A DNA stretch of 64,000 bases from Paraspadella gotoi. Its lineage: Eukaryota > Animalia > Chaetognatha. Position numbers and translations under genes: made by a program. Positions 1,422 through 63,231 of this stretch are shown piece after piece. The notes under the pieces were generated by a model, which saw only the letters and a list, made by a program, of their open reading frames with translations, was not told the DNA's origin and made no database searches. The stretch spans positions 1,679,554-1,743,553 of the forward strand of contig CM119266.1 in assembly GCA_051294375.1 (NCBI GenBank), given 5' to 3'. Positions within the stretch are counted from its first letter, which is position 1. Each line of letters opens with the position of its first letter.

Positions 1422-1688
1422 TCTGGTGGTCCTATCACCACAGATGGATTAAAGCTGTTTCTTTCACAGCGCCTCAGTTGCTCAGTGGACTAAATGCACC
1501 ATCCCAATGTGCGTCCCTGGTTCGAGCCCTGAGGTTGTCATGTAGAAAGTGGGATGGACCGGGTAACCGCCTGTAGGCATGGGCCTACTGTCAGATCCAA
1601 AGCTCTGGACTACATGAACATGCTGTCTCGCTGTCGCCACGAGGTGACACCGCTGCGGGTGTGGCGCCCTGTAAAACCAGCCTATTCA
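1422..1688 (+). mobile_element. Solo LTR, family B (tRNA-like module plus twister motif)
   Basis: Termini TCTGGTGG...CTATTCA resemble family A termini TATGGTGG...CTCTTCA. 4-bp TSD TTAT at 1418-1421 and 1689-1692. tRNA-like region 1471-1535 with A box TTGCTCAGTGG and B box GGTTCGAGCCC. Confidence 0.75.
1539..1616 (+). ncRNA. Type-P5 twister ribozyme-like motif, family B
   Basis: P5 CATGTAG/CTACATG; GG-GA-TGGA ... TAA-CC-GC; P3 GTAGGC/GCCTAC; P4 TCAGA/TCTGG with loop TCCA-AA-GC; T1 TCCA:TGGA. Predicted cleavage at 1564/1565. Confidence 0.75.
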
Positions 1689-1701
1689 TTATCATATATT
1701 T

Positions 1702-1932
1702 TATGGTGGACTAAAATCCACCAACCGTTCATCAGGGCCAATTGGTGCCGGAGGCAAGTCATTCGCCTCCCAACCCAAGGTCCGGGGTTCTAGCCCGGTG
1801 GTCGTCTGCAGTTAAGAGGACTGGGGCGCTTAACCCGCCTGTAACATGTGTTTACAGCCTGATCCGAAGCCAGGGACTGCTTATATTGACGGTTCTGTCA
1901 TATACACTTATTACATAATTACTGTCTCTTCA
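1702..1932 (+). mobile_element. Solo LTR, family A (several small deletions, twister motif damaged)
   Basis: Aligns end to end with the LTRs at 14245/14658. 4-bp TSD ATTT at 1698-1701 and 1933-1936. Confidence 0.9.
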
Positions 1933-2643: not shown

Positions 2644-3848
2644 ATGGCGCTCGTGTCTGCCCAATATTCTGACTCTGAGGGAGAACTAAGCGACGGAGGG
2701 CAACGTGATGTCAACGACGATGACTATTTTTAGCGATGCCCAGCCTCTGCTCTCCGCCGTGATCCTTCCATTCTCCCCTTTGCTCATCTCTCCGCCGAAA
2801 ACCAACCCTCGGGGGCAGCAGCGGCCACAACACGCCACCCCCTCCGCCACGTGGGGCGGCGCGCCCGTCGGGATCTCCGGACGCGATTCCGGCCTCGCTT
2901 CTCGGCAGCCGTCAGCCGAGCCCCAAGTCCGGTGGGACGGACTCGCCACTCGTTCGCCTCATGCCAACACAGCGTCTCAATCTCACGGCCTCTTCTGGAC
3001 TAGTCTCTTATCCGGGGAGGAGGAAGAGGAGGAAGATGATCCTGACAATTACGAAGTCTACGATGATTACAAGGAGAAAGAGAACGAGCCTGAGAAAAGA
3101 GGACTTGACGAGGGACTCGTTCCCGACTACAATGGATCTCTCCTCTGCCAATATGAGCGTAATGGTCGTTTGAAGCCGCCCCACCCGCAGAAGGTGATTC
3201 CAATTCCTACGCCGGGACACCTCCGCAATTCCCGCCCGAACCTCAGGGCCGCTGCTCAAAAGCGCTACAGGATAATATCGCCCTGAAGTATGAGGATCTA
3301 GCGAGGAAATGGACTACAACAAAGCTATTCAACGCAAAAAAGAATTCAAAAATCCATCCATTTATGAAAAACTCATCGAGTTGACCGGGATTTACGAATT
3401 CGGCACCAACTATCCGGCTCAAGTATACGACCCCATTTCTGGGGGGATCAGGCTTCCTATGAAGATTTGGCCAAAGCGCAAAAAGTTGAGATGGACAAAC
3501 GCGAAGAGAAGCGAAGGAGGTGCCAGAGCTAAAGTGGAATTCGTTTCAGGCACTGCTAGAAAACCAACTTCATCTTCCACCATTGCTGACACTGATAGCA
3601 AAGAGAAAAAGCGGAAAAGCAAATGGGATCAAGGCGCCGTTGATGAGCGTTGGCTGCGTCGTCGGCGTCGTCGTTGTCCCTAACTGAGTGTCCCGGTCGC
3701 AGTGACGTCCTCGAGTGTTCTTCCCGTGGCGTCCGGTACGAAGACGACCGTTATCTCTGCTGTTGGAGGCCTCTCAAAAAAGACTAAGTCTAAGAATATT
3801 CTCTATTCGTCGCCTGCTCCGACGTGGCGGCGTCAAACGTATCTCTAG
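2644..3848 (+). pseudogene. SAP30BP: Intronless SAP30-binding protein (SAP30BP/HCNGP) sequence with multiple frameshifts (retrocopy or error-containing retrogene)
   Basis: Begins MALVSAQYSDSEGE. Contains the HCNGP motif [23 protein letters not shown]...EFGTNYP, then [17 protein letters not shown] and the C-terminal TTVISAVGGLSKK. Frame broken several times. Confidence 0.8.
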
Positions 3849-4037
3849 TCTCATCTACGAAGAACCCCTTGGCGTCCTCAAGGTCTTCCTCACGAGAACG
3901 TCATCAGAGACGCCGTCACAACAACACAACACTAAAGAAGGACCGTCACGGCCATGGACAGTGCTCTACGCCCTCACGGCTTCGGTGGCTAAGAAATCAC
4001 CAAGAACTTTCCAACCCCAAAGGCCCTTTTTAGGGCC
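3803..4037 (+). pseudogene. H4: Degenerate 3' part of a histone H4 gene with intact stem-loop
   Basis: [26 protein letters not shown]...GFGG* with indels; stem-loop GGCCCTTTTTAGGGCC at 4022-4037. Confidence 0.85.
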
Positions 4038-6089
4038 TCTATTTTCCTCTCAGAAAGAATTGTCTAACTTATTGTACCCAAATGCAATCAGAGAGCTCTT
4101 GGCGGATTTTATCCTAATCGCGGGTCAGATTCCATCTGCGATGCTATAGATAAATATCCATCAGTGTTTTGTATAAAACTAATGTTAACATTTTGAGTCT
4201 TGGTTTTTTTTTAGGTTATACAGAGGTTGGACCCTTATCGAGACAAAACTTAACGTCCTGCCCTGTCTGAATGATTTGTTACGCAATGATACAATGAGTG
4301 TCAAGTTTTTTTGGGCTTTTTACTTTTATATACAATGAAAAAAAATTTAAGCAACTACAAGGCTCGTGGTTGTTTTTAAAACATGTGTCGTTTTTATGCG
4401 CGCGGCATTGTATTGCATACGATAAAAGCCATACTTATTAATATTTTTTAGTGGTTGTTTCTGAACATGACAGTGTTATATCTTATCTTCAATTCACCTG
4501 ATTTTAAGCTTTTCATTACTATCCGAATTAAACATTTTTTTAGGTAAGTAAACAAAATCTTACCTTTTTGACGCTTTTATTATGCATTAAGAAATCTTAA
4601 GTAATTATTAGTAACTTACCCAAATCTTACCTGTTTACTTTAAAAATGTTTTAACCAAAATACCATGTACACCTTGCCAGAATCATTATTATACAACAAA
4701 TATGTATTTCTAAAAATATTTTTAATTTTTATATATTAAAATGAGATATAACACTAAATTTCAAACATTTTTTTTTACAAATCGCTTGGATAAAACCGAG
4801 CAGTTGTTTTTGCTGCATCAAAGCATACCATCAAAGAATTTTAAAACAATTAATATATTGTTTAAAAGCTAAGAGATAGTACTATACCAATATTATTCAG
4901 ATTTTAAAAATCATTAAGATCTTTAGAATAATGATTTTTAAAATTTTGTCCCGATATAGGGTCCCACCCCTGTATATTTACACATATTACAGTAATCAAG
5001 GAAACGTATTTCTGAAAGTGAAGACATACCTCTCGCCCCCTTTTTTTAAACTCATTTTGCAGACTTGTGTACATATACATATTTTGTTTGTTTTCTGTAC
5101 TGAATCAACCTTGTTGCATTCGAATAAAACGCTTATAAATAATTAGTGTCTCAAGCGTACTGTCACTTTACAAATGTCAAAATTGGTGATTATCAATTTG
5201 ATAGAAACCACCGGAGAGAATAAGTTCATACAGTTTCTTTTGGTAGCTATATTATCACTTTTATTTTTTATAGATACAATGCAAAGTTCAAATGAAGGGA
5301 ATTTTGTTTTGACAGTTGATCAAAAGATTTTTGGTGAAATTTATAATGTAGTCCTGCTTTTGGTTACAAATATAATTCTACATATTATATTATTGTAGGC
5401 CACTATGTTTATAGGGCTTTGACTAAGAATTTTGTGAATTTGGAATGATTGACGATGATGATTTCAGAAAAGAAGATTCAAGAATTATTATGAAAACTCA
5501 TTTAAGTTTATCTTCAGGAAACTGATAAAAGCTTCAAATTTAGTATCCTATGATTCAGCATATGATGCATAGATGCATTGAGTACATTCTACTGCTAAAA
5601 CTATTTTCCAGATGACTGCAGCTCACAAGCATTGCTAAATAATAATAATAAATGTAATTGGCTCTGTCAAACCAGCTGAATATCTGTAACAATCTTTCAA
5701 TTAAAACTAATCAAATACCCTCAAATCCGGAAGGACAATGGTGAAATTCTATTAGGAAAGGCCTGTGACCTTCACTTTACAATCGGACGTATTATTATAT
5801 AACTAAAGTTGTTTTTTTAAATTTAGGTAATTGGAAAGAATATTTTAAAATTGTTAAAAAGTATTTTCGACATTGGCTGATAAAATGTGATATAGAGGGT
5901 TAGAGGGTCTCGTGCTTCAAGCCCGGCCGGCGCGCCGGCATCGCCCACATTAATCCCCTCGAACAAGTTTGATTTTAAAAATAAATATATATAAAACTAA
6001 GAACTTCTGGATCCAAGAGTCAGTACAGTAAATGCATTTTTTATAACTGTACTGATTCACTGTATTCATTGTAAAGTAACAGTACGCTT

Positions 6090-6182
6090 GAGACACTATT
6101 AATTTATGAGTTAGTGACAAACCGTTCAATATAAGCAGTCCGCAGCTTCGGATCAGGTTGTAACACAATGTTAAGGCGGGTT
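6090..6182 (-). mobile_element. Diverged 3' fragment of a family A LTR
   Basis: Reverse complement AACCCGCCTTAACATTGTGTTACAACCTGATCCGAAGCTGCGGACTGCTTATATTGAACGG... aligns to the second half of the LTR. Confidence 0.8.
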
Positions 6183-6446: not shown

Positions 6447-6679
6447 TATGGTGGACTAAAACCCCACCAACCGTTCATCAGCGGCCATTGGTGCCGGAGG
6501 CAAGTCATTCGCCTCCCAACCCAAAGGTCCGGTTCTAGCCCGGTGGTCGTCTTGCAGTTAAGAGGGACGGGGCGCTTAACCCGCCTGTAACATGGTGTTA
6601 CAGCCTGATCCGAAGCTCAGGGACTGCTTAAATTGAACGTTCTGTCACTAACTCATAACAATAATTACTGTCCTCTTCA
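6447..6679 (+). mobile_element. Solo LTR, family A, with intact twister motif (6554-6627)
   Basis: Full-length match to the LTRs at 14245/14658. Flanks CCCT and CCTA form a near-TSD. Confidence 0.9.
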
Positions 6680-6821
6680 CCTATAATGCTTGAAAACGTA
6701 ATTTAGGCCTTTTCTGAAGTGTTTTTTTTTTTCTCGATGAGGAGCTATAACAATGATAATATTGAATAATATAATAAAGGAGCAACCAGATAATTATGAC
6801 AATGCTTTCTTGAAACTGTGT

Positions 6822-6837
6822 AGCCCTAAAAAGGGCT
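6822..6837 (-). terminator. Histone 3' stem-loop (H2A)
   Basis: AGCCCTTTTTAGGGCT on the minus strand, downstream of the H2A stop. Confidence 0.9.
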
Positions 6838-6866
6838 TTTGGGGTAAAAGAAGGGCGTTGATGAAT

Positions 6867-7310
<444 letters not shown>

Positions 7311-7539
7311 TTATACCTCCTCCTCGGATCCGGAGCAAGAGTAGAAATTTCAAGCCTCGCTTTTATTGGACAACGGCATTTTATTTTGGACCAATCACAG
7401 GCCGCGGTTTCCCTTAAAGCGCATTTTGGTCTTGCCTCTGATCCACTTACAGCATATAAAAGGAACAGCGCTGCTTCGACTTCATTTCGAAAAACTGACA
7501 TTTTGATTAATTTTGATTCTATCGCTCTCGAACGCAAAT

Positions 7540-7911
7540 ATGCCTCCCAAAGTTTCTTCAAAGGGCGCGAAGAAGGCCGGTAAGGCTAAGGCTGCCCGTT
7601 CTGGCGGGGAGAAGAAAAAGAAGAGAAAGCGTAAGGAATCTTACGCTATCTACATTTACAAAGTCTTGAAGCAAGTTCACCCGGACACTGGCGTCTCCTC
7701 CAAAGCCATGAGCATCATGAACTCGTTCGTCAACGACATCTTCGAACGCATTGCGGCCGAAGCCTCCCGCTTGGCCCACTACAACAAGAGGACCACCATC
7801 ACCTCCAGGGAGATCCAGACGGCCGTGAGGCTTCTCCTCCCCGGTGAATTGGCCAAGCACGCTGTATCTGAAGGCACCAAGGCCGTCACTAAATACACCA
7901 GCTCTAAATAA
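7540..7911 (+). CDS. H2B: Histone H2B
   Basis: [14 protein letters not shown]...[10 protein letters not shown]; divergent from H2A; stem-loop at 7938-7953. Confidence 0.98.
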
Positions 7912-8321
7912 ATTCCCTCGTGCTAATCCACCCCAAAAGCCCTTTTCAGGGCTACCATTTTAATTAAAAAAGATTGTCAATGTAGGTGAAGGCCATTAAA
8001 AGCCTAAGACTTAACGAGTTTCCCAATTGCGTATCATTTAGTGGTTTCGGTTCGCGTTCGTCTCTTTTTCACCTAGCAAACTTGTTTTTCTGGTTTGAGA
8101 ATAAATCGCTGTTCTTTCTTGCTTAGCTGTTCGTGTGTTGAAACGCCACGGAACAAAGAAAGATCTCTGCTGGCTTTTGTTTTATTTTTCTTGCAAAAAA
8201 AAAAAGTTTTCTTCCGTGTTGGTCGAGGCGAAATTTAAAAATTCTTTGTTCAGATACGTATTAACGTAATTAAAACATTTTATAATCTTCTGTTGTGATC
8301 TTAAAAGAAAATTCATAAAAA

Positions 8322-10111
8322 ATGAAGTGGAAATTTAGAGAAGCTCATTCTTTGGGTAAGATCTCGTGTGAAGGGTCGATGAAACTAATTACATTACTAT
8401 ACATTTTGACGTATGGATCATATAGAAAATCGTGAATAAAAAAAAGTTCTCAAGCATAACGATGCTCTATTAAAATCGGATTGCTTCCCTCGCCAGTTCC
8501 GGAACCGTTTATAAGCGGTTATATCTGCATATTTGTATTTCACTGTCCAATACGACTAAAAGTTTCCTCTTGGTTTCGATAATTGTCATTTGACCATAAT
8601 GTTTTATTAGCGAGTTGCTTGTGGTTTTGGAGAATTGAGATGTATCGCGGTTCTATTTTTGAATGTCTATTGCTTAAGAATTAAACGAAATTTGTACACT
8701 GTCCTTGTACTTCACTAACTATTCAGACAGCCGCTGCCAAGAATCTGCAAAAATCCGAAGCAAATACCCCGACAGAATTCCTGTAAGCATTAAACTTTAA
8801 AGGCTAGTTCGATAGCCATGCCTACTAAAGCCTACTAAACATTGTACTAATGAACATTAATGTATAAAAATATTTTAATCATTTAAGGAGGGATTTATTA
8901 TAAATTTTACAATTTAAACTGAAAATTAACGTTTTATATATTAAATATAGTTTTTTAAATTTTTAACCCACTTAAAATAAATTATAAATTTTTAAAATTT
9001 CTTTTATTATCAACAATTAAAATTCAAATCTGTCATCAAAATTAAGAAAAGCCGATTTTTTAAGGATACTACTATATTTAATTAAGAAACATAAATTTTT
9101 TTTTATAAGTTAATGTTCACTGGTGGTACGTTGTTCCTACGTAACTTTCACTATATACTCTAATGCCTACGCTATTCACTCAATTATTTGCTTTCGGTTT
9201 GAAGTGATTTAATTTTAAAAAGTCCGCTTTCCCTATCATATGCATTGTATTTGTAAGACTCTCTCCCCATTCTCCTAAACAACAGGTGGTCGTGGAAAGG
9301 GCACCGCGTTCCACTTACCCCGACTGCGACAAGGACAAGTTCCTAACTCCCAGCGACCTGACCGTCGCCCAATTCATGTACATCGTTCGAAAACGAATCT
9401 CACTTTCGCCGGAAAAGGCGATGTTTCTCTTCGTAAACGATGTTCTTCCTGCGACGAGGTCATATTCAATTATGAAATAATATTTTATAACATGTTAAGG
9501 CTAGATTACTGAAATTTAAAATTAATAATAGGAAGATTGATATTCAGTGAGTCCAGTACACGTATAATTCAGATTTACCAATTACAAGCAAGTACTCAAA
9601 ACTAGCTCAACTAGACTAAAGCGAGATTAAAAGCTTGCATGGTTTTGTGAGAGGGATGACGCCTAAACCTACTACTATAGCCAAAGACATTTTAAATTAC
9701 GTTGGCATCTTATAAAATGTCTTTGTCGGCCTCTTGAGGATTTCTTCTCTTTGCCAGTTTTTGGTTAAGAATCTCATGTTGGCAACCAACGACGTTCATT
9801 TCGAGAAAGATTTGACATTCATTTGACATTCATTTGACATTCATTTCGAGAAAGATTTGACAAATTTTTATTTTGATTTCCTCAATATTTCGGCAGCGCA
9901 ACCGTCGGTGCCATCTACGAAGAACATAAGAACGAGGTAAGAAAAACCATAAATAAATATTGAATCTTATTGTATCAGTTTTTGTAATTTTCATATAAAA
10001 ACGAAACAGTATTTGATTAAATATTTAAACCAGAGCTAAACTTATTTATAAATCATTCCCTACTAGGATGGATTCTTGTACGTTGCTTACAGCGAAGACA
10101 ATTTTATTTGA
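8322..10111 (+). CDS. GABARAPL2: ATG8-family protein, GABARAPL2-like, 5 exons (~8322-8355, 8728-8782, 9286-9458, 9897-9936, 10067-10111)
   Basis: Spliced translation [35 protein letters not shown]...[16 protein letters not shown]...[14 protein letters not shown]; GT-AG introns. Confidence 0.9.
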
Positions 10112-10357
10112 AAACACGGTTATCATCGGGGAAGAACAAGCTAATGAAATCTCTTAAATCTGTTAAAATGCTTTGCTTTTTATTTGAATTTAACCTAAAC
10201 ATTCAACAGGGGCGCTAGTTAGTGCAGACCGCGTCACTGCTTAAGATATCTAGGGAAAAAAAAATGATCAGCTTGGGAAACATAAGCATGACATCTTTCG
10301 AACATGATGGTGGCCCTAAAAAGGGCCGTTTTGATTGGAAGGATTAAGATGTACTTG

Positions 10358-10819
<462 letters not shown>

Positions 10820-11168
10820 TCAGCGAGCATATTCTTGGAACAAAGTCACCGTTGAGATTTTCCCTCCTTGTTTTGAAAAGAGGTAAAACTAAAATGGGGA
10901 ACCGGCTTTTTATACGTTTTTGAACAATTATAATAAAAAAATATTTATGTGTAAGGTTCATTATTTCCTGGTAAGACTATAGATGTAATCGCATTTGAAT
11001 AAATAAACCATAAGACAAGGATGCGTCTTTCCTTCTCTTCGCGCGATAATTTTCGGATCAGGAGCACGGATGGAGAAAAATTTTCGACCAATCAGAACGC
11101 AGCAAATTCCTCTCGTCCCTATAAAACAAAACTATTCTCTCTCCAACGACAATTTCGATAAAATCTAA

Positions 11169-11618
<450 letters not shown>

Positions 11619-11929
11619 AGCGTGAATGCAATCTAACCACCCCAACGGCCCTTTTTAGGGCCACATATATATCTAAAAAGATCTGTCATATTTCGTGGCC
11701 TTTCCTCCTAGATCACTAATTGGTTATTTAACGTAATGACTAACGGAATTTTAGGTTAGGCTTAAAGCGATTGTATTAGTTTTAGCCTAGTATTGTATCA
11801 TTAGTAGATGGACAAAATCAAAAAGGTAGCATTTTAGCGGATATCAATAAGCGACGGAGCTATTTATTTTAATAATTAAAATTTCAGATGGTCTGTGAAA
11901 GGAATATTCCTTTTAGATATTATATATTT

Positions 11930-12155
11930 AGGTGTGGGCCCACGGTGCGCAGCGGGTGCGAAAGTAGGGCTCGCCACTTATGCCGTAAGCTAGGGCAACG
12001 GGCGTCGGGACTGCAGACTCTCATTGACCGCCTCCTGTCATAGTTTAAACCGGATTCGTCACATTTAAGCCAGAACCGGGATGCCCAGGGATTGAACCCG
12101 GGACTCGGGGTTGAAATGAGATGATTTAGCCTGCTTAGTCATTGGTAACAGCGAG
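11930..12155 (-). mobile_element. tRNA-derived SINE
   Basis: Minus-strand A-box-like TGACTAAGCAGG and B box GGTTCAATCCC. Flanking direct repeat ATATATTT at 11922-11929 and 12156-12163. Related head at 62125-62230. Confidence 0.7.
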
Positions 12156-12181
12156 ATATATTTTGATATTATTTTAGTGTA

Positions 12182-12279
12182 AAATTTTTATTTTCGCCGA
12201 CCGGTGTTTTGGCGTAAATTATTACCATATTACCCATACCACCCTTAACCCCCAACGCCGGTCGGCAAAAGTAAAATTA
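12182..12279. mobile_element. Small inverted-repeat element (MITE-like)
   Basis: AATTTTTATTTTCGCCGACCGG ... CCGGTCGGCAAAAGTAAAATT; related ends at ~1215 and ~21950. Confidence 0.55.
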
Positions 12280-12499
12280 TGCCCATTTTAGTACCAAGTC
12301 ATTAGTATTAACGTGGGTCAAGAGCCAAAAGTTATTATACTATTTAACACAAAAATATTTCGAAATCTAAAAAATAAAGAGAGAAATAATTAATGTTGCA
12401 ATTTTCATATTATACTACACTTTAATTCAACAATCTTTTAAGACATAATAGTGGCCCTGAAAAGGGCCTTGGGTTGATTGAATAGAGGAACAAAACTTC

Positions 12500-12874
<375 letters not shown>

Positions 12875-13703
12875 TTAAATTTAAATCACAGTATCGAACC
12901 TTACCGGTTAACTGCTCTATAATTCGGCTAATCAGAAGTCGGACGTCATGAACCAATAAGAGAGGAGGATTTTTGCGGACGCGGGATAAGTGCAACGGAT
13001 ATTTGGATGCAGGATTGTAGTTTTCATTGACGTATTGGCAATGCTATTGGCAATAGTATTGCGTATCAGGATTTTTGAGTTATATTTTTACATTAATTTA
13101 ATGTTGTTAATGATATTGTTAAGTATTACGGAGATTCTTTATTGTTTACATCTCACTCCGTAGGGGCAAAAAATAACTGAGGCAAGGCATAATATTTTTC
13201 AGAGACATTAGTTAAAAACTAATAGAAACGATTCTTGATCCGCTTATCGATTATTTCTATATCTCTTTAAGTAACTTGAAACTGAGATAGAAATAGCAGT
13301 TGTGGTGAGTGGTGACAATTTTAAACCTACCGCTTAAAAAATACTGCCATTTGCCAACCCTTAAATATTTTTTTTAATTTTAACTATTATTTTAAAATTA
13401 AAAACGAAAACTATTTATTTGTGCAAATTTTATATTAATCGATTTTAAAATGCTTTAGCGATGATAGCAGGAGGATAGATTTGAAAACCGTTTTTAATTT
13501 TTAAATTCATACTTTTTTTTATATTAGACTTTTTTCCTTTTTCAATAAGCTTCTTAAAAAAATATTGATTAAAATAATATCAATATTATTATCTTCTGAA
13601 AGCCCTTACAAATATATAGGTTGTATCAATTTCATAAAAAGAATGATGTACTTATGATAATGAATATAAAATTTAACCACTGTCACCTCGGCCCCTAACC
13701 CGC

Positions 13704-14013
13704 CACACTTTGAAGCCATAGTAAGGTGGACAGCAGAAAATTTCATACAGCCTCGCTACCCAGCTGTAACCACTACACTTTGAAGCCATAGTAAGGTGGA
13801 CAGCAGAAAATTTCATACAGCCTCGCTACCCAGCTGTAACCACTACACTTTGAAGCCATAATAAGGTGGACAGCAGAAAATTTCATACAGCCTCGCTACC
13901 CAGCTATAACCACTACACTTTGAAGCCATAGTAAGGTGGACAGCAGAAAATTTTATACAGCCTCGCTACCCAGCTGTAACCACTACACTTTGAAACCATA
14001 ATAAGGTGGACAG
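13704..14013. repeat. 70-bp tandem repeat, ~4.4 copies
   Basis: Unit CACTTTGAAGCCATAGTAAGGTGGACAGCAGAAAATTTCATACAGCCTCGCTACCCAGCTGTAACCACTA starts at 13706, 13776, 13846, 13916 and 13986; partial copy at ~15227-15268. Confidence 0.95.
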
Positions 14014-14352
14014 TAGGGTGAAGTGAAAGTTTGGAATTGAAATTTAGCAGTTATATCTTAACTATAGTAGCCCAGTCAGCTTATTTTGTATATAGTACTA
14101 CCCTTATATAATGTCAAAATTTCAAAATGATTTTTTTTAAATTCTGAGAACAGATTCAGATTCCTCGTTAAAAGTTGATAAAAGAAAATATAAATCTTTT
14201 TTAAAAATTATGTCATTAAGTAGGTAAAAATTATAAAAAACTATTATGGTGGATTAAAACCCACCAACCGTTCATCAGCGGCCATTGGTGTCGGAGGCAA
14301 GTCATTCGCTTCCCAACCCAAAGGTCCGGGGTTCTAGCCCGGTGGTCATCTG

Positions 14353-14426
14353 GCAGTTAAGAGGGACGGGGCGCTTAACCCGCCTGTAACATGGTGTTAC
14401 AGCCTGATTCGAAGCTCAGGGACTAC
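14353..14426 (+). ncRNA. Type-P5 twister ribozyme-like motif in the 5' LTR
   Basis: GCAGT..GG-GA-CGGG-GCGCT-TAA-CC-C-GC-[CTGTAAC/GTTACAG]-CCTGA-TTCG-AA-GC-TCAGG-G-ACTAC. Predicted cleavage at 14376/14377. Confidence 0.72.
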
Positions 14427-14765
14427 TTATATTGAACGGTTCTATCACTAACTCATAACAATAATTACTGTCTCTTCATTGGTGAGCCCGACTTCCGAAC
14501 ATAACAACAACAACACTTTCCGGCGACATGCCTGAACCTGGCGATGCAATTTCCGCCCACAACACATCAGGCGACATGCCTCAACTTGGTGACGCACTTT
14601 CCACCAACAACAATTCACTGAAGAGACGCAACAGACATCTTCCTACGAGGGGGGGTGTATGGTGGACTAAAACCCACCAACCGTTCATCAGCGGCCATTG
14701 GTGTCGGAGGCAAGTCATTCGCCTCCCAACCCAAAGGTCCGGGGTTCTAGCCCGGTGGTCGTCTG

Positions 14766-14839
14766 GCAGTTAAGAGGGACGGGGCGCTTAACCCGCCTGT
14801 AACATGGTGTTACAGCCTGATCCGAAGCTCAGGGACTGC
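14766..14839 (+). ncRNA. Type-P5 twister ribozyme-like motif in the 3' LTR
   Basis: P5 GCAGT/ACTGC; P3 CTGTAAC/GTTACAG; P4 CCTGA/TCAGG; L4 TCCG-AA-GC; T1 TCCG:CGGG; T2 GC:GC. Predicted cleavage at 14789/14790. Confidence 0.78.
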
Positions 14840-16856
14840 TTATATTGAACGGTTCTATCACTAACTCATAACAATAATTACTGTCTCTTCACTATGTTTT
14901 TAAACTGGAAATTAAAAATCGATGTTTTAAATATAGTTTATTACATTTTTGACTAACTTAATGAAAGAATTTTTAAAAAAGAATTATACTTTCCTTTTTT
15001 AACTTTTTGCAAGGAATCCAAATCCGATCTTAAAATTTAAAAATTTGCATTTTAAAATTTTAGCCTATTATATACTTATAATAATATATAAATATAGCTC
15101 ACTGGTGCCCGCTAATGTATAAAATTAAAAAATAAATTTATCAAAATATTTTTAATGGTTTTTATGTTCATGTTTTATATGCTAAATTTTAATTTTCTAA
15201 AATTTTATCATTTTCACATCACTCTAGTGGACAGCAGAAAATTTCATACCGCCTCGCTACCCAGCTGTTATCAATGACGCGACGATATATATATATATAT
15301 ATATTCAGTCAGTTAAAAGTTATAATAATTTTCATTTCACTCCCATTTGAAATCCATGTATTTAAACTTTATTTTTTACAAAATATTAAATTTAATCTTT
15401 AATACCTAACCCTAACTTATCCTCTAACCTAATTAACCTAATTAATTCTGAAGTTAAGCTGAAAAGGGGCACTTTTTAAAAATATGGTCAAAAGTTGTTT
15501 TTAAAACATGCCCTTCCAGTAATCTACACAAAATATGAAAGATTCAGTAAAGTGAGACTGGAAATATGTTAGCGAAACTTCTGATGTCTTTTGCGTCGAA
15601 AGTTTATTTTTTTATTTTTAACTCTAAACAAAAAAAATTATACCATACGTTGTTTTCATTTTCTTCGGACGAAATTGTGTTTAGAAATGAAAAAAAAATA
15701 ATTTGGAATTTTAAAAATTTTTAAAGCATACATATTACTATATGAAAATACTATTTGTAATACAGTTATAAGAAAAAATAAGTTTTAATAGGCCTAAATT
15801 TCATTATTTGCATGTACAAATATATGAAAAAAAATGCCAAATCGCTCATTATTTTCATTGCTCCACTCGACTGTTTGCCACAATGAATATCCGCGCATCG
15901 GGTTTTTTCTTTCTTTCTTTGTTTTTTTTCTTTGTTTCTAACTTCACGAGAGCTGACATGTGTTTTCTCCCGTCTAATCCTTTTAAAGCAGTTTCTTTTT
16001 GCCGAAGACCTTCACACAGTTCCCTTATACTTATAGATAAGCATTCTCCGAGAATTCATTTCGTTTGTGTAAGTTGGGTTTGCGTCAAGTCGCTTAAAAT
16101 TTGAATCTCGAATGATGGTTTAACAAGTTCTTCATTATCAAAACATTAAATCTAAATAATATCTCACTAAAATTATTTTCTCTTTCAGTTGTACTACGTT
16201 AATGATGTATGAAAATTTAAAAAAATAGCTGAAATTTAGACTCAGTGTTGCTCTGGCACGAAAGGTAGTTCGAGTTTTAATTGGGAGATAGAAAAAGAAA
16301 AAATGTGGCAGCAGATGTGTTAGTGTCTAGGAATAAATCAAGCTGAAAGTATAGAGTTTCACTGTCTATCCTTTAAAAGTGATCGAATTAAAAAAATCCC
16401 CAAATTTCGGGACCAAAAAAACCTAATTTTAAATAACAAAACTATTTAACATGTTCAGAAATATAAATTTAACGGGAAGCTTACTTAGTCTTTTTGGTGC
16501 GAACGAACAGAGAAGAATAGTGTTAGAGTTTCAGACTATTGCAGCGAAATTTGGATTCTTGTGACTTAATAGGCTACATATATCGATGAATAAATTGTTT
16601 TGCTTTTAGACAATATATAAAAATATATTCTATTTAGGTTCAAGCGCCGATATTTAACAAAAATACTTGACTCAACAAACACAAATGTCATTCAAATTTT
16701 TCTCTCGGCGGATCTTGGCACGGGAGCGCTCTCGTTAAGGTTCGATCCTATAGAAATCTTTTGTTAAAACTCGGAGCGGAGAATAAGTTGATTATTCTTT
16801 CGCCGTTCGTACAATCAACTTCTCTCGCTCTCTTTCTGAGAAATTTAACCTCAATC

Positions 16857-17447
16857 ATGTCTGACGCTGCTTCTGCTCCGGCCAAAAAGGCCTCTAAGCC
16901 AAAGGCCAAGAAGGCTGCCTCTCATCCGCCTTTCACCCAGATGATCGTCAATGCCATCACTGGTCTCGGTGACAAGAAAGGATCTTCCAAGGTGGCGATC
17001 AAGAAGTACATTCTCGCTAACTTTAAAGTCGAGGATACGAAGTCCACCAACACTCATCTCAACATGGCGTTGAAGCGTGGTGTGGACGCCGGCAAGCTGG
17101 TCACCGCTAAAGGCCACACTGGTCACTTCAAGGCCAACAAGGAAGTCGCCCCCAAGAAGCCCGCGGCCAAGAAGGCTTCGCCCAAGAAGAAGCCTGCCGC
17201 CAAGAAGCCCGCCGCGAAGAAGGCTTCGCCCAAGAAAGCCGCCACGAAGAAGACCGTCAAGAAGTCCCCCAAGAAGGTGGCCAAGCCTAAGACCGTTGCC
17301 AAGAAACCGGCGGCCAAGAAGACGCCAAAGAAAGCCGTTTCTGCAAAGAAGCCGGCTGCCAAGAAACCCGCCGCTAAGAAGCCGGCGGCCAAGAAGCCAG
17401 CTGCGAAGAAACCGGCTGCCAAGAAAGCCGCGCCCAAGAAGAAGTAG
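16857..17447 (+). CDS. H1: Histone H1
   Basis: Winged-helix domain ([30 protein letters not shown]) plus KKPAA-rich tail; AAACACA box at ~16677; stem-loop at 17477-17492. Confidence 0.96.
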
Positions 17448-18335
17448 GCCGTTGGCTCCATCGAACTCACTCCAAAGGCCCTTTTCAGGGCCACCATTTC
17501 CTCTAAAAAGATCGTCATCGAAAAATGTAATACACGTGCGAGTAATACCAGTTAGAATCTACTAAGGCCTGGTTTAGTTTAAACGAGATAATGTGACTAA
17601 GCAATTCTCTTGATTCGCAAGATAAATAATTAACTAACTTTCATAAAAGAAAAGTTTGTTTCTATTAAACTAGATTCTTTTCCCACACTACAATTCGAGA
17701 CGTACGTTGTCTTCGCTACACCGCCTCCGCATCTTTGGCAAAACAAGACGGTACCTGAGGCATGCGGTGGCACTGGGTCGGAAGTCTTTGTCTCAACGGG
17801 TGCGAGAGAACTCCGAAAATTAACTAATAATTTGTAAATTTTCTGTGACCGCCACAATTACTATCGAGTATTTTTTGTGGCGAATTTTTCACAAAATAAG
17901 GAAATCAATCAATGTAATATTTGTAATATTGCAATAATTACAGTTAAAAATTTTATACTACAGTATTTGTAAGTACATCATTCTCTTTAGATTTGTAAGG
18001 GCTTTCAGAAAAATTTCTGAAAATATAAAAAAAAATTAAATTTTGAACATTGCAAAACATATAATTTGGACATATAAATAATTAATATACTATTATACTT
18101 AACTTAATGAAATAACCACTGGTTTGCAAATAACAGCGTTATTTTACCGGCGCTTATAAAATTGTCACCATGTAGTAATTTTGTAGTTCTAATTTTAATA
18201 AATTTACGGATTTGTCTACGTTTTAGGACCTAAAGAGAAAATCAAAGTACCAAATAGCTGACTGACGATCTTTTTGAATCATTTGTGGCCCTAAAAAGGG
18301 CCCTTGGGGTGAGTTAATTAATAGTAACTTAAATC

Positions 18336-18728
<393 letters not shown>

Positions 18729-18980
18729 TTATAAACTTTTGGATCGAACCTCATCTGTTGGCTGCTTACTAATTCGACGAATCCGGCGTCAGCAGCCGAG
18801 TGGCGGCATCGGCCAATCAGTGAGAAGAAAGATTTTGAAAATTTTTTGTCTATTTTTTCAGTACATAACACAATATTGGCTTATAAGTTATAAGTTATAA
18901 GTTATAACTAAATTATCCAGAAACTCGTCAAAGACTTTGACAAAGTTAAAGTTAATTAAAAGCATTTAAGTTAAAGTTAA

Positions 18981-19647
<667 letters not shown>

Positions 19648-20589
19648 TAGAATTCGTATATATATACACTTAAGGGAGTGGTCTTTTCATACAATTGTAA
19701 CAATCTTTGAAATATTATACCACTTCATTGATAGGGAAGCCAGGTACTCTGGGAGTGAATAAACAAGACAGTCTTGATTAAAAGCTTGCAGGGATCTGCT
19801 ATCTTAATCCACCAAAGCAAGATAGCTTATTTATTAAATTAATAGATAATCTTTATTGGTTGTACCAATTTCATAGATAAAAGTGAAAGCTTATTTGAGT
19901 ATAATCTCGTTTACAAAGTAGAGTTTTTATGAAATTGGTACAACCAATATAAAAATATTTACTGCAAATATATTATATTTATCCTATATATTTAAATTAG
20001 ATTTATTTCATTTAAACACCGATAAAATCGTTGTTTAAATAAAATACTAAAAACTCTCAACTTTGTAAAAGAAATTCGAAATACAACGAAAAAGAAAGGA
20101 AATTAAATAAGCGTATTATCATAATTTTTAAAAAAAGCACTACACTACAATTAAAGATTTAATTAATTCTTTCTTTATTCCTGCGGTAAGGCAGTATCCT
20201 TTATAGTTAGGAAAATGGAAAATTTAAAAATTAGCTTTCGACTATTCCGCCAAGCGTGGGATCGTCTCCAAAATTGAACTTCTAAACGCATTTCCCTAAT
20301 TTGGGAGTTCTTTAACAAAATCTTTATTAAAAGATCGCAAGGGCAAGATTTCATGTTTATTGGTGGTACCAATATCATTATGCTAGTGGGGAAACTAAGA
20401 GCAAGGTTTTATCCTAAAAAATAATTGATGATGGTACTTGTTTTTTCTTTTCTTTTTTTACTTCAGCTCTATTAAGCATTAGGAGACGTAAAGAAGATAT
20501 TAAACATAAGTCGGCAATGACAGATCTTTTGAAAAACAATGGCAGCCCTAAAAAGGGCTTTTGGGGTGTTTTCAGTTCTTGAAGGAAAT

Positions 20590-20961
20590 CTACTTGGAGC
20601 TGGTGTATTTGGTGACGGCCTTGGTGCCTTCAGACACGGCGTGCTTGGCCAATTCACCGGGAAGCAGAAGCCTCACGGCCGTCTGGATCTCCCTGGAGGT
20701 GATGGTGGTCCTCTTATTGTAGTGGGCCAAGCGGGAAGATTCGGCCGCAATGCGTTCGAAGATGTCGTTGACGAATGAGTTCATGATGCTCATTGCCTTG
20801 GAGGAGACGCCGGTATCAGGATGAACTTGCTTCAATACCTTGTAAATGTAGATAGCATACGACTCCTTTCGCTTTCTCTTCCTCTTCTTGTCACTGGCAG
20901 AGCGAGCAGCCTTGGCTTTTCCAGCCTTCTTCGCGCCCTTGGACGAAACTTTCGGAGGCAT
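20590..20961 (-). CDS. H2B: Histone H2B
   Basis: [14 protein letters not shown]...KYTSSK; stem-loop at 20544-20559. Confidence 0.98.
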
Positions 20962-21244
20962 TTTACGTGAAATCAAAGACGAGATTAAAAGATCTATGTT
21001 TCTCCACACACTCTTGGACTTTTCTTTTTATATGCCCTCAACGGATCAGAGCCGAGGGTAAATTGCGCAAGCTCTGAAATAACGCTCTCTGATTGGTTGA
21101 ATCAAATTTAAACAACCAACAGAATCAGGGCGGATTTTTTTACTCGCGCTTTGGATCCTGCTTGCTGGTATAAAAACCGAACTTGACGCGTTTTAGAAAT
21201 ATTTTTTGACTCATCGTATAGCTCGTAACAATAATTTCATTACA

Positions 21245-21616
21245 ATGTCTGGACGTGGAAAAGGCGGGAAATCCAAAGGGAAGGCGAAGAGCCGTTCCAG
21301 CCGTGCTGGGCTTCAGTTTCCAGTGGGTCGTGTCCACCGATTCCTGCGCAAAGGCAATTATGCTGAACGCGTTGGCGCCGGTGCTCCGGTCTATTTGGCC
21401 GCTGTTCTCGAGTACCTTACAGCTGAGATTTTAGAGTTGGCTGGTAACGCTGCTCGCGACAACAAGAAGACGAGAATCATTCCCCGTCATCTTCAATTGG
21501 CCATTCGTAACGACGAGGAGTTGAACAAACTTCTCTCTGGGGTCACCATAGCTCAAGGTGGTGTCCTGCCCAACATCCAAGCTGTCCTGCTGCCCAAGAA
21601 GACCGAAAAGAAGTAA
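21245..21616 (+). CDS. H2A: Histone H2A
   Basis: [19 protein letters not shown]...KKTEKK; stem-loop at 21643-21658. Confidence 0.98.
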
Positions 21617-21828
21617 AAGTTCTCAACACTTCCCACCCCAAGAGCCCTTTTTAGGGCTGCCAAAACCTCTCAAAAGATCTGCCAGTTACTGTTTAATCAA
21701 ATTAATGTATCTTAATTCCATCCATGTTAGAGCCGAGTACAGGTTTCTTTTTTCGGACCGAGAATCGATTCTGACCAAATAACTGAACCAAGTTTTATAC
21801 GATTTTGCGTAGTATCCCAATGGCCGTT

Positions 21829-31875: not shown

Positions 31876-34800
31876 ATGTTGGACTCGAAGTCGAAGACCA
31901 AGCCGCGGACGGGGGATTTGGTGTGGGCCATGATGAAGGGATTCTCCTGGTGGCCAGGAAGAATTGAGGAACCTGACCCCGACGTGGAGCCGCCCGCTTT
32001 GGCCAAACAGAAGCCCCACCATTTCTGCTTCTTCTTCGGCTCGGGAAATTAGTAAGAATTATATAATACTTGGTTAGAGGCCGTTTTTTGTAATTTTAAT
32101 GTTTATTGAGACTAAGAGAAAGACACAGAATGAAGTTATTGTGAAAGGTATGTTGGAATTAAAATTTAAATAACTATTCCTTTTTCCCAGCGCGTGGGTT
32201 GAGGAAGAAAAGATGGCCGAGTACGACGAGAATCGGGAAAAGTTGAAACCGAGTGAAGTGAGCAGCAATTTGCAAGAAGCCATCGATCGGATCGAAGAGG
32301 CGCTCGCGATGAGGGTGAGTCCAAGAGAGTGGGTCATGTTTAAGGTCTTAGATAACCAGCATTTGGTCTTCGAACCTCTACCCAAATATTTATCGAATCT
32401 TTGCGTACCTTTCAATTCTGCAGAAACGACTCAAGGATAACGACGCCGCCCCTTATTCCCCGATGTTCGACGACGACGACGACGATTCTGCCTTATCCTC
32501 GACGCTGCTTCGACCGATCCTCACCCAGCGGCAGAACTCTAACGATTCGGTGTCGGATTCTGACCTTCCGCACGGAGACGATACGCTGCTGAATTCCTAT
32601 TCAAAGCTGCTGCAGGGCGACGCCACCTCCGACGCCGCGTTGGACGGTGTCTCAGCCGAGGAAAATGGCGAGGGCATCGATTCCTCGGTCGATATGCAAC
32701 AGAGGTGAAGTTAGCTTAGATCATTTGGCATTGCTGCATATTTACTAAATATTTTTAATTAGTTAAATCGTTAGTTTTTATATGCCCGCTTGTAGGGACG
32801 CCGAGTCTTTAAACGGCGAAGCGGACTCGCTGAGGCTGTCTCCGCCCCCGTCTTCCAAATCGACGGCGTTGACGACTGAATCCGTTCCGTGTGGCGATGC
32901 TACGGCGTCGTCGGCCAAAACTAAAGCGCCGTCCGAAAAAATAGCCACGCCATCTGTTAATTCTGAGGCTAAGTCGACCACAGCTTTGTTACCTGGTGAA
33001 AAATCGGCGACGCTTTCAAAAGAATCGGCCACTCTCACTAATGATTTGAAAACAACTTCAATAGAATCGGCATCGCCTTCAAAAGAATCGGCATCGCCTT
33101 CAAAAGAATCGGCATCGCCTTCAAAAGAATCTGCATCGCCTTCAAAAGAATCGGTATCGCTTTCAAAAAAGTCAGCATCGCTTTCAAAAGAATCGGCATC
33201 GCCTTCAAAAGAATCGGCGGCGCCTTCAAAGGAATCGTCGGTACATTTGAAGGAATCCGCGGCGCCCTTGAAAGATTCCGCGGCGGCCCTTAAAAGAATC
33301 GTCGAAGCGCAAGTCGCCGTCGGACGATGACGCCAAGTTGGATCACACCGCCATAAACGCCGGTCAGAAAAGTTTGTTTGGTCTTTAATTAGAGAAATTT
33401 AATGAACTTACCTGATAGTTATTATAATATTCGCAACATCCTTCAGACTTCGAGGGAAAAGCGAAGCGCGCGAGAAAAGTTCCCTCAAAATTGGCGGATT
33501 TCGCGATCGGCGTTTCCGCCGAGATGAGGATTCAACCGCCGGTGAGGACATTCAGCCGCAAGTCGAGCGCTGGTTCCGGCGCCGGAGCTGGTCAGGCCGG
33601 AAATTCTGAACACTCAGACGGTTAGTTTTTTTTTGTGGGAATGAAAGCCTAGTAATATTGAACCGATTCCATTTTCGGTTCTGAGTTTTGATCAATTATC
33701 TTATCAATCTTTAGGAACCGACTCTACCTTAAGCACAACCACTCCCTCCTCCGCCGTCAAAAACAGCATTAACAACAACCTCTCGGCCGCTAAAGTCTCT
33801 AGAAATTCCAAGAAACTCGATCCCTCCGTCACAAACAGGTTTGCTTTTTTTTTTCAATCGTGTCGGACTTTGTAAGTCAACTTCCTCGCCAATAGAAGGT
33901 CTATTGTCTCGGGCGACTGATTTGTTAAAGTGGTGCCTATTTTTTTTTTTGGCGTGTGTTTATTTGGATTGTGGGAACGAAAGTCGTACTCAAATCGTGG
34001 GAAGAAACCTTAAACATTAACGTAAGTTTACCATGTTATAACAAGTCGTTGTTAAAATCATCCCCCACCCATTCCAGCACGTCGTCGACGTCCTCGACAA
34101 AGCCTCGACAAAAGGCACCCTCATCTCTCCGCTTTGGCTTCCTCGGTCTCGGCGCCATGGGCTCCGGAATGGCGGCTTCCCTTGTCTCCGCCGGTCACGA
34201 CGTCGTCGTCTGGAACCGAACTGCGTCAAAGTGTCGCGAGGTGGTGAGGGCCGGGGCCAGCAGGGGCGCCTCAGCCGCTGAGGTCGTCCGCGACTGCGAC
34301 GTGACCTTCTCGTGCCTCGCCGATCCCGCGGCGCTGAAGGAGGTCGTCTTTGGCAGCAATGGGGCGTTGCTGGGCATCGCCGACGGAAAAGGTGCGAGGG
34401 GATTAATGGGGGACCGATGAGAACGGATCCGCTTCCCATTCTCGGTGTCCTCTGCCCGTTTTGAAATACTTGGTGACAATTTTACAAGCGCCGGTAAAAA
34501 AACCAGTGGTTATTTCATTGATTTTAAAAATTAGTTGAGTAGAAAATATTAAAATAATTTGTGTTCAAATTTTATATTGATCTGTTAAGATATGCCCTGA
34601 CAATGAGTTGAGAAAGTTGGCTTGCAAAATCGGGTTTCATTTTCCAACTCGGTTTTTAAATTCTTTTTTTTTTTCAATTTTTAACACTTTTTTAAACAAA
34701 TTATTTATTAAAATATAAACAATATTATTATCTTCAGAAAGCCCTTAAAAAAATGAAGAGAATGATATACTTACAAAAGCTTTAACATAAAAATTAAGTT

Positions 34801-36404
34801 GCCCAGCCTTGGTTTAATTAAGAGAGTCAAAAGTGAATTATGTAAAATTTTAAATCTTTTTTTAAAATATAACCTGTTTAAATTATTTTAATATAAAAAT
34901 TATTGTTTATATAAGTATCATGAAAGAGCCTGAAAAAAGAAGATTTAAGATAGCCAATCACAATTTGATAAAAATCTTAAATTTACCCTCCAGTTATTGA
35001 TTTTTGGAAAGATGTTTCTTTTTTGAGTATCCTAATTAAATTAAAGCTGGGCCGGTTAAATTTTATATTACAGCATTTGTAAGTTCGTCATTCTATTTAG
35101 ATTTGAAAGTGCTTTTAGAAGATAATAATATTAATATTATTTTGTTTTAAATTTCTTCAGAAATCTTATTGCAAGTAAAAGTAAAATATTGAATCTAAAA
35201 AAGTGAGTTGGAAAATGAAACCCGATTTTACAAGCCAACTTTCTAAACTTACTGTCAAGGCATATCTTAACTGATCAATATAAAATTTGAACATATAAAT
35301 TATTTTAATATTTTTTACTCAACTAATTTTTAAAATCAATGAAATAACCACTGGTTTGCAAATGACAGCGTTTTTTTACCGGCGCTTGTAAAATTGTCAC
35401 CATGTAAATTTTCAACTTTGAATTTACGCTTCAACAAGCACAAACAAACCTGTTTCGTCCCCAAAAAGATCCCACTCAAAATTCTAATAGACGACAATGA
35501 CTACTGGCTACATAAGTTTCGTTTTATTTAGAAAAAATTCGAATTAACTAATTTTACTGTAAATTTTGTAAATGTCTTGTTCCTTTTAATTTTTTAACTT
35601 TCTAGTTTTTCATCATCAACAATCTTGAATTTTCAATATCCCATCCTAGGCTACGTGGACATGTCCTCGGTCGACGTGGACACCTGTCGCGAAGTTGCGG
35701 AGGCGGTGCAGTCACGCGGAGGACGTTTCCTCGAGGCGCCGGTCTGCGGGTCGAAGGATCCCGCCCGACGGGGCCTTCTCACTGTCGTCGCCGCCGGGGA
35801 TAAGGAACTCTACGACCAATGCGAGTCCTGCTTCTCTTCCATGGCCAAGCGATCTTTTTATTTGGGTAATTAATTCTAAATTAAATAAATAATTAAATAA
35901 ATAATTAAAATCCAAATACAAATGTACATAACTGGAGTTTTAAATATAGGCGACATCGGCAACGCGGCTAAGATGAAGTGCGTTCTCAATTTGCTTGACG
36001 GGGTTATGATGGCCGGGCTGGCAGAGGCCATGGCGCTAACGGAACAGGTAAACGGTCGAACCTCTCGGATTTATTTCCAGGAAATCTCGTTAAAAGAAAG
36101 TGGCGTTAAATCTTAGGTTGGACTCCGCCACGCGGACGTGACGGAAGTCCTCGAACTCAGCGGCGTCGACTGCGCCCTCGTCCGCGAGAAGTCGCGCGAG
36201 ATGATCGAGGGCACCTTCACGCCCTCTCTCGCCCTCAAGCATCAGCAGAAGGACCTCAAACTGGCCGTGGATCTCGCAGACGAGCACCACCTCCCGCTCG
36301 TCGTCGGCTCCGCTGCCAACGAACTCTTCAAACGCGCCCGGGCCATGGGTTACGACGAGCACGACAACAGCGCCATCTATCGGGCAGCGCAGTACAATTC
36401 ATGA
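31876..36404 (+). CDS. GLYR1: GLYR1/NP60/N-PAC: PWWP domain plus 3-hydroxyisobutyrate dehydrogenase-like domain (multi-exon)
   Basis: GDLVWAMMKGFSWWPGRI (PWWP), then GFLGLGAMGSGMA, VWNRT, FLEAPVCGSK, AAKMK and LKHQQKDLKLA. Confidence 0.9.
33010..33290 (+). repeat. 21-bp coding tandem repeat (SKESASP)n
   Basis: TCAAAAGAATCGGCATCGCCT units within a GLYR1 exon. Confidence 0.9.
34469..35404. mobile_element. MITE/foldback element with long TIRs and TA flanks (Tc1/mariner-like) in a GLYR1 intron
   Basis: TGGTGACAATTTTACAAGCGCCGGTAAAAAAA ... TTTTTTTACCGGCGCTTGTAAAATTGTCACCA; inverted similarity extends >150 bp; related ends at ~13312 and ~18110-18172. Confidence 0.85.

Positions 36405-60978: not shown

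Positions 60979-63231
<2,253 letters not shown>

Follow-up and report, generated by a model that had tools for sequence, protein, structure and literature searches.

What is a tRNA-like sequence doing inside a long terminal repeat (LTR), directly upstream of a sequence that resembles a self-cleaving ribozyme? The question is raised by positions 14278..14350 (+) of a 64 000-nt stretch of Paraspadella gotoi DNA (contig CM119266.1), hereafter the window, whose first letter is position 1 of all coordinates given below. A first-pass annotation had proposed here a tRNA-like RNA polymerase III (Pol III) module. Our answer, to which we assign a probability of about 0.45, is that the module is part of a gene-less mini LTR retrotransposon that carries a decayed tRNA, likely as a Pol III promoter, along with a predicted twister ribozyme, and that the element likely multiplies via a self-cut circular RNA.

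Window positions 14245-14891 (+) are occupied by a young, high-copy mini LTR element of 647 bp (a TRIM), gene-less and made of two LTRs around a non-coding middle; it has a primer site, a purine tract, a 4-bp target-site duplication, many dispersed copies and, within its LTRs, a tRNA-like module and a twister signature. The duplicated CTAT stands at 14241..14244 (+) on the left and at 14892..14895 (+) on the right. The 5′ LTR (14245..14478 (+); 234 nt, with TA...CA ends) differs at five positions from the 3′ LTR (14658..14891 (+); 234 nt). The internal part (14479..14657 (+); 179 nt) contains a primer-binding site at 14480..14492 (+), where 12 of 13 bases are complementary to the 3′ end of tRNA-Trp(CCA) as printed in Kojima's Fig. 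S2 (PMC10886601), and a polypurine tract at 14647..14655 (+), which ends 2 nt short of the 3′ LTR. All five LTR differences (14254, 14310, 14348, 14409 and 14425) are C>T or G>A, and at each of them the 5′ LTR is the odd one against the 3′ LTR and both solo copies, a pattern that could come from chance or from deamination. Judged by eye, no helper element was seen among the window ORFs of at least 100 aa.

The full copy and three further insertions of the window fall into two families. Family A includes, besides the full copy, a solo LTR at 1702..1932 (+) with the duplication ATTT and a decayed twister motif, a solo LTR at 6447..6679 (+) with an intact twister motif and an imperfect duplication (flanks CCCT/CCTA), and a fragment of the 3′ part of an LTR at 6090..6182 (-), which starts at the predicted cut region. 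Family B, diverged from family A, is known from one copy, a 267-nt solo LTR at 1422..1688 (+) with the duplication TTAT; it lies 13 nt from the first family A solo LTR, in the same orientation (1422-1932). Perfect 4-bp target duplications thus flank three of the four insertions, and a model built from five window copies found no additional copy within the window.

Public contigs of the same organism contain the TRIM in very high abundance and exit into unlike flanks at exactly two positions, 14658 and 14891; the numbers leaving there are, respectively, 110 and 93 in run X1, 83 and 68 in X5, and 24 and 31 in X9, so that loose contig ends accumulate at both borders of the 3′ LTR. Run X9, whose identity as RNA is a guess, covers the flanks too and is therefore uninformative on expression. 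In X1 and in X9 a single contig jumps over 651 bases (647 plus one 4-base duplication), as expected of an empty site; these contigs may represent other copies of the AT-rich, multi-copy inverted repeat, probably a MITE, whose arms (14072-14244 and 14933-15105; 77% arms) enclose the TRIM.

Elements of these families have invaded a histone cluster at 6800-21700 (H1, H2A, H2B, H3 and H4, with stem-loops); damaged H3 and H4 copies lie near 19041-19562 and 3800-4040. The cluster marks the host as an animal, as does a PP2A search, in which no named match was close (the best at 82-84% identity). Further repeats of the window are a tandem array at 13630-14050, in which a 70-nt unit recurs about five times and of which one isolated partial copy lies at 15227-15273, and a long inverted-repeat element at 34467-35406 with a 61-nt arm at 98%, probably a MITE.

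The tRNA-derived, Pol III-type character of the LTR module turned out to be well supported, while its cloverleaf is eroded and the boxes of family A are imperfect. As quoted in the first-pass annotation, the 5′ acceptor strand GCGGCCA is present at 14278-14284, the A-box-like motif TGGTGTCGGAGG at 14286..14297 (+) and the hairpin CCGGG-GTTCTAG-CCCGG at 14326-14342, which pairs with its loop displaced by one base; the B-box-like motif GGTTCTAGCCC occupies 14330..14340 (+). The quoted 3′ acceptor strand TGGTCGT and arm TCGCCTCCCA come from the 3′ LTR; at the annotated coordinates, in the 5′ LTR, the acceptor pairs at six of seven positions and TCGCTTCCCA is the sequence of the anticodon arm. The 3′ LTR module (14691..14763 (+)), which lies inside the predicted 413-nt RNA described below, has a complete acceptor (7/7) and an ARAGORN score of 89.4. 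Erosion in family A is seen in the anticodon stem (three of five pairs) and the weak D-arm; its A box has C in place of the usual A14 and its B box T in place of the usual purine at R57, that is one mismatch in each, scored against consensus patterns. The module of family B (about 1469-1539 (+)) has a perfect B box at 1519-1529 and one A-box mismatch; it folds as a rod, in which a 7-bp helix consumes the 3′ strand of the T-stem, and its quoted motifs are found at 1471-1477, 1478-1488, 1519-1529 and 1529-1535. Two candidate features of the module were rejected: covariation of the acceptor between the families, because the helices are in different registers, and self-priming, because the longest complement to the primer site is 5 nt.

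Conservation of the boxes across copies, on which the Pol III proposal had been made to depend, was observed among the window copies: the B box is identical in all four family A LTRs and the A box varies at one C/T only. The public-contig variants that we considered (40 of 122 rows) included none in the B box or in the twister core, one at the variable C/T of the A box, one in the P3 loop of the twister-like motif and two that turn a G-U into a Watson-Crick pair.

Could the likeness to a tRNA have arisen by chance in a GC-rich stretch of the LTR? ARAGORN made no tRNA call at its default cut-off (100), and Rfam gave no tRNA match in the LTRs at E<=10. At a lowered cut-off ARAGORN called tRNA-Gly(CCC) exactly at 14278-14350, 14691-14763 and 6480-6552; with -ps85 there were 13 calls in the window, nine of them unrelated to the TRIM family. 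A descriptor combining A box, B box and acceptor matched three of the four family A LTRs and nothing else in the window, missing the copy at 1702 and family B; it used consensus patterns and was composed after the sequence was seen, which favors chance. Nevertheless, only three of 1000 dinucleotide LTR shuffles gave any ARAGORN call at -ps87, and only two of 3000 shuffles matched the descriptor. In both families TCCCAA is retained at the anticodon position and the B box lies at tRNA spacing, and a tRNA within an LTR is an architecture reported from >200 families. A chance resemblance therefore appears highly improbable. Another tRNA-headed repeat of the window, SINE-like and located at 12051-12144 and 62129-62222 (-), has two copies that agree at 85% over 94 nt; it contains a B box followed by a hairpin and has no notable Rfam match.

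The design had been called Cassandra-like. Cassandra (PMC7215508, PMC10886601) does carry, according to the available descriptions, a small-RNA-derived Pol III-type promoter inside a TRIM LTR. Its promoter, however, is of 5S origin rather than tRNA origin (Rfam gave no 5S rRNA match in our element at E<=10), it is described there without a ribozyme, its LTR contains Pol III terminators and its RNA has 18-nt end repeats.

The right comparison is Helenus, or TRIMp3 (Kojima 2024, PMC10886601), a group of TRIMs with tRNA-like LTRs whose animal members are described as having 4-bp duplications and Gypsy-type primers. The element studied here falls within the Helenus definition, so tRNA modules in TRIM LTRs were known before, and the module taken alone is one more Helenus family. 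Common to both are a size of <1000 bp (here 647), two LTRs, primer-binding site, polypurine tract and no coding region; a tRNA-derived LTR sequence (here at the ARAGORN score of 89.4, below the default cut-off, and with no Rfam match); the GGTTC of box B, kept in all five window LTR copies; and the 4-bp duplication and Gypsy-type tRNA primer site of the animal members. TA...CA ends occur among the Helenus elements presented as well. As for box A, given there as TRGCY/YGG for most families and not required, family A departs from it with TGGTG...AGG and family B has one mismatch with TTGCT...TGG. As for differences, the LTR here runs on for about 130 nt beyond the module, whereas most animal Helenus LTRs presented stop a short way past it, often in a T run, and the available part of the paper describes no ribozyme, its text touching on ribozymes only inside a citation.

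A ribozyme-like motif does directly adjoin the module downstream, as had been annotated; we predict it to be a P5-permuted twister-like motif. It extends over 14352..14427 (+) in the 5′ LTR (predicted cut 14376|14377; T1 has a wobble here and P5 a mismatch), 14765..14840 (+) in the 3′ LTR (predicted cut 14789|14790, predicted catalytic G at 14778) and about 1539-1616 (+) in family B (predicted cut 1564|1565). The parts follow each other as P5, G-A with the T1 partner, a 6-nt linker, UAA, a short P2, GC, P3, P4 with the L4 loop, and P5. Pairing in the 3′ LTR is 3/3 in T1, 2/2 in T2, 8/8 in P3 and 5/5 in P4, with 7 bp in P5, 2-3 bp in P2 and no P1. The UAA, the G-A, the L4 motif, pseudoknots T1 and T2 and stem P4 are complete in the 3′ LTR, the copy at 6447 and family B. 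A twister descriptor gave three matches in the window, all in TRIM LTRs, and none in 200 shuffled windows; it missed the 5′ LTR of the full copy (T1 wobble) and the decayed copy at 1702. The label remains twister-like because P2 does not have its 4 bp and P1 is missing: from UAA to T2 there are 3 nt in family A and 2 nt in family B, against a standard stem of 4 bp, and a 6-nt linker replaces P1 in both families. Type-P5 twisters (Rfam RF02684; S. mansoni twisters, T-variants, PMC8501958) share, as far as described there, the UAA cut site, G-A, L4 loop, T1/T2, P3, P4 and open P5; the motif here differs in its P2 of 2-3 bp, the linker in place of P1, its lack of recognition by Rfam and its location in an LTR element, not a LINE. 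A hammerhead or HDV reading was rejected, as their core motifs were not seen by eye and Rfam gave no match.

The two families are homologous from the anticodon loop through the end of the twister-like motif (nhmmer E 1.5e-7). Identity is 77% from the B box to the acceptor and 69% in the twister (0 of 500 shuffles each); segments upstream of the B box are weaker (5, 11 and 50 of 500 shuffles), and the part 3′ of the twister, at 38% (97 of 500), is not conserved. At the sequence level the block from B box to twister is the best-shared part of the families. Among 18 homologous pairs in T1, T2, P3 and P4 we counted five compensatory changes, one wobble and one broken pair; at the third T1 pair, family A has G-C and family B has A-U, where S. 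mansoni twisters and the Rfam consensus have C-G.

Does the motif cut? Self-cleavage is a prediction from the structural model, and we lean towards it. According to the accessible part of a review (PMC5408937), P1 is dispensable for twister cleavage in vitro, and any change in P2 length is suggested to perhaps disrupt the active site. A scan for short-P2 twisters in viral, metagenome and prokaryote collections, which hold few animal sequences, returned 64 loci and none with the fold (nine without the L4 motif, 55 with a P4 of at most 3 pairs). A canonical-pattern scan gave eight twister-like loci out of 135; one contig, counted twice, is readable with a 3-nt P2 strand, its locus L065:124-191 (same contig as L120) being a natural P5 twister that exceeds the gathering score of Rfam and for which a 3-bp P2 is a possible reading. 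The model from the five window copies scored canonical twisters weakly (best E 0.25).

If the motif were vestigial or too slow, the TRIM would be an ordinary Helenus element, which uses a Pol III promoter, makes a linear RNA that keeps its terminal repeats and goes through strand transfer in the normal way. Such a reading agrees with the short P2, the missing P1 and the silence of Rfam, which gave no twister match in the LTRs at E<=10 though it detected canonical twisters, and also with the minimum-energy folds, where a competing 4-bp helix (family A) or a GNRA-type hairpin (family B) lies over the cut site. The 5′ LTR of the full copy carries two changes in the motif, and among the animal Helenus LTRs examined in the PMC10886601 supplement only two show a ribozyme. 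Yet the five compensatory changes, one of them in the T1 pseudoknot, and the retention of all core twister bases by both families despite their divergence would be difficult to account for if the fold were not under selection; moreover, the LTR has no T4 stop that could set the 3′ boundary of the terminal repeat (R). We thus consider an ordinary Helenus element unlikely.

For a self-cutting element the following life cycle may be proposed. TFIIIC would bind the A and B boxes, and Pol III would start near 14278. The 5′ ribozyme would cut at 14376|14377, shedding a 99-nt tRNA-like leader, while Pol III would continue through the 3′ LTR and stop at T runs of the flank; the first of these (14897..14901 (+)), a possible Pol III stop, lies in flanking DNA 5 nt past the element, and a stop inside the element would be unnecessary. 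Cleavage by the 3′ ribozyme at 14789|14790 would leave a 413-nt RNA with 5′-OH and cyclic-phosphate ends and no terminal repeat, which a host RtcB-type ligase would close. A Gypsy-type reverse transcriptase, primed by tRNA-Trp, would copy round the circle and rebuild both LTRs, and the integrase of the helper would insert the copy. Since the circle would include the tRNA module from the 3′ LTR, the promoter would be inherited and both LTRs rebuilt. The junction of such a circle would have the same sequence as the LTR.

Double cleavage would remove R, on which strand transfer depends, and replication would then call for a circular template: for a 413-nt RNA without a terminal repeat ordinary strand transfer would be ruled out, and the circular route of plant retrozymes is indicated. 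Plant retrozymes are described as losing R likewise and using circles (PMC4918200), and RtcB is reported to circularize animal retrozyme RNAs in vitro (PMC7229834). By analogy, the predicted cut RNA fits the retrozyme model as published, with circle ligation, tRNA priming, reverse transcription and a Gypsy helper for integration. In folding, the 413-nt RNA has a slight advantage over shuffles (z -2.3, 3/100), an effect too weak to count.

The lack of TTTT in the element had been offered in favor of Pol III. TTTT is indeed lacking on the + strand of 14245-14891, but not beyond chance: it is also missing in 17-19% of dinucleotide shuffles, in 43-44% of mononucleotide shuffles and in 85 of 926 GC-matched 413-nt windows. 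With TTTT-free stretches so common, we rejected this argument. The related idea that self-cleavage defines the RNA ends 'instead of capping and polyadenylation' misses the point, as Pol III RNAs have neither a cap nor polyadenylation.

The main rival to Pol III transcription of a self-cutting element accepts ribozyme cleavage and replication through circles and derives the RNA from Pol II or from read-through; the tRNA module would then be a relic, or an RNA shape kept for folding, packaging or host processing. Double cleavage would yield the identical 413-nt RNA from any polymerase. Both modules surpass shuffled sequence in their folding (z -2.3 and -3.2), and the boxes of family A each lack a normally fixed base in spite of the family being young and abundant, which speaks against the route proposed above. 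The single mapped retrozyme promoter, that of the plant NbRZ1, appears from the available account to be Pol II-driven (PMC12029980), and read-through by any polymerase is the retrozyme model as published. On the other hand, no part of the module is better kept between the families than the B box, which is perfect in family B; the module begins only 33 nt into the LTR, and the family A LTR has no TATA-like or AATAAA hexamer. On balance we doubt a Pol II or read-through origin of the RNA and prefer Pol III.

The plant LTR retrozymes, in the descriptions available (PMC4918200; NbRZ1, PMC12029980), resemble the TRIM in being non-coding LTR elements with a primer site, a purine tract and a 4-bp duplication and, as far as predicted for the TRIM, one self-cleaving motif per LTR, a cut RNA without terminal repeat and a Gypsy helper. 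They differ in that the TRIM resides in an animal host and has a twister-like motif rather than a type III hammerhead, a tRNA-Trp rather than a tRNA-Met primer, a predicted RNA of 413 nt rather than 600-1000 nt and a candidate internal promoter derived from a tRNA rather than an upstream, probably Pol II, promoter. Given the twister-like motif and the tRNA-Trp primer, we regard the element as retrozyme-like in its predicted working and do not file it as a retrozyme. The Schistosoma hammerhead SINE-like repeats and the animal non-LTR retrozymes (PMC6765202, PMC7229834), as there described, also have a Pol III-type promoter upstream of a self-cleaving motif, and in them too the promoter lands at the 3′ end of the cut monomer; unlike the TRIM, they are tandem repeats with type I hammerheads and without LTR, primer site or purine tract.

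The closest Helenus members are Helenus-2_SyJa and Helenus-2_SyUm of Synergus gall wasps, listed in supplement DataS1 of PMC10886601. A search of this supplement for the tRNA-Trp primer, the one used by our TRIM, returned only these two. Read by eye, their LTRs contain a complete type III hammerhead about 32 nt past the B box (35-36 nt for the motif of our TRIM), with a GUC site, stems I, II and III of 7, 4 and 6 bp and a 12-bp loop-loop pairing; the hammerhead goes unmentioned in the available text of the paper. A motif search of the whole supplement file gave five hammerhead-core matches, two of them in real hammerhead context, and no twister pattern, with the qualification that the 70-base line breaks of the file can hide motifs. 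The gall-wasp elements thus have a hammerhead where the TRIM here has a twister-like motif. The internal part of both contains T4 runs, a point against the proposed life cycle as well as the TTTT argument. Two lineages with a tRNA module and a ribozyme in the LTR are suggestive of a class, not proof of one.

The literature up to 2026, to the extent available, presents LTR retrozymes as mainly plant elements, always with hammerheads, and animal retrozymes as lacking LTR, primer site and purine tract. No description of a twister within an LTR element, or of an LTR that pairs a tRNA-type promoter with a ribozyme, was found in the literature searched, which excluded subscription journals and Repbase reports; the supplements of bioRxiv 10.64898/2026.07.22.740005 could list such elements. 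The new part is the combination, in one LTR, of a tRNA-type promoter candidate and a predicted twister, with a hammerhead counterpart in gall wasps. Tentatively, and with somewhat less assurance than for the element itself, we propose an unrecognised class of animal LTR retrozymes: tRNA-Trp-primed, Gypsy-mobilised minis with small RNA circles, a tRNA-derived Pol III promoter of their own and an exchangeable ribozyme cassette, which would be a new compact twister (short P2, no P1) here and a type III hammerhead in gall wasps.

Should the motif fail to cut, the TRIM is just another Helenus family. If the proposal is true, P. gotoi has an LTR retrozyme of animals that combines a twister with its own candidate promoter, which would bear on the question of which polymerase makes retrozyme RNA, and the predictions are exact: a 99-nt leader, one U|A cut and a 413-nt circle. 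A twister that tolerates a P2 of 2-3 bp would mean that Rfam-based surveys miss such ribozymes. TRIMp3 and the retrozymes, which have been described separately, would be joined, and the ribozyme in the LTR would be a swappable part.
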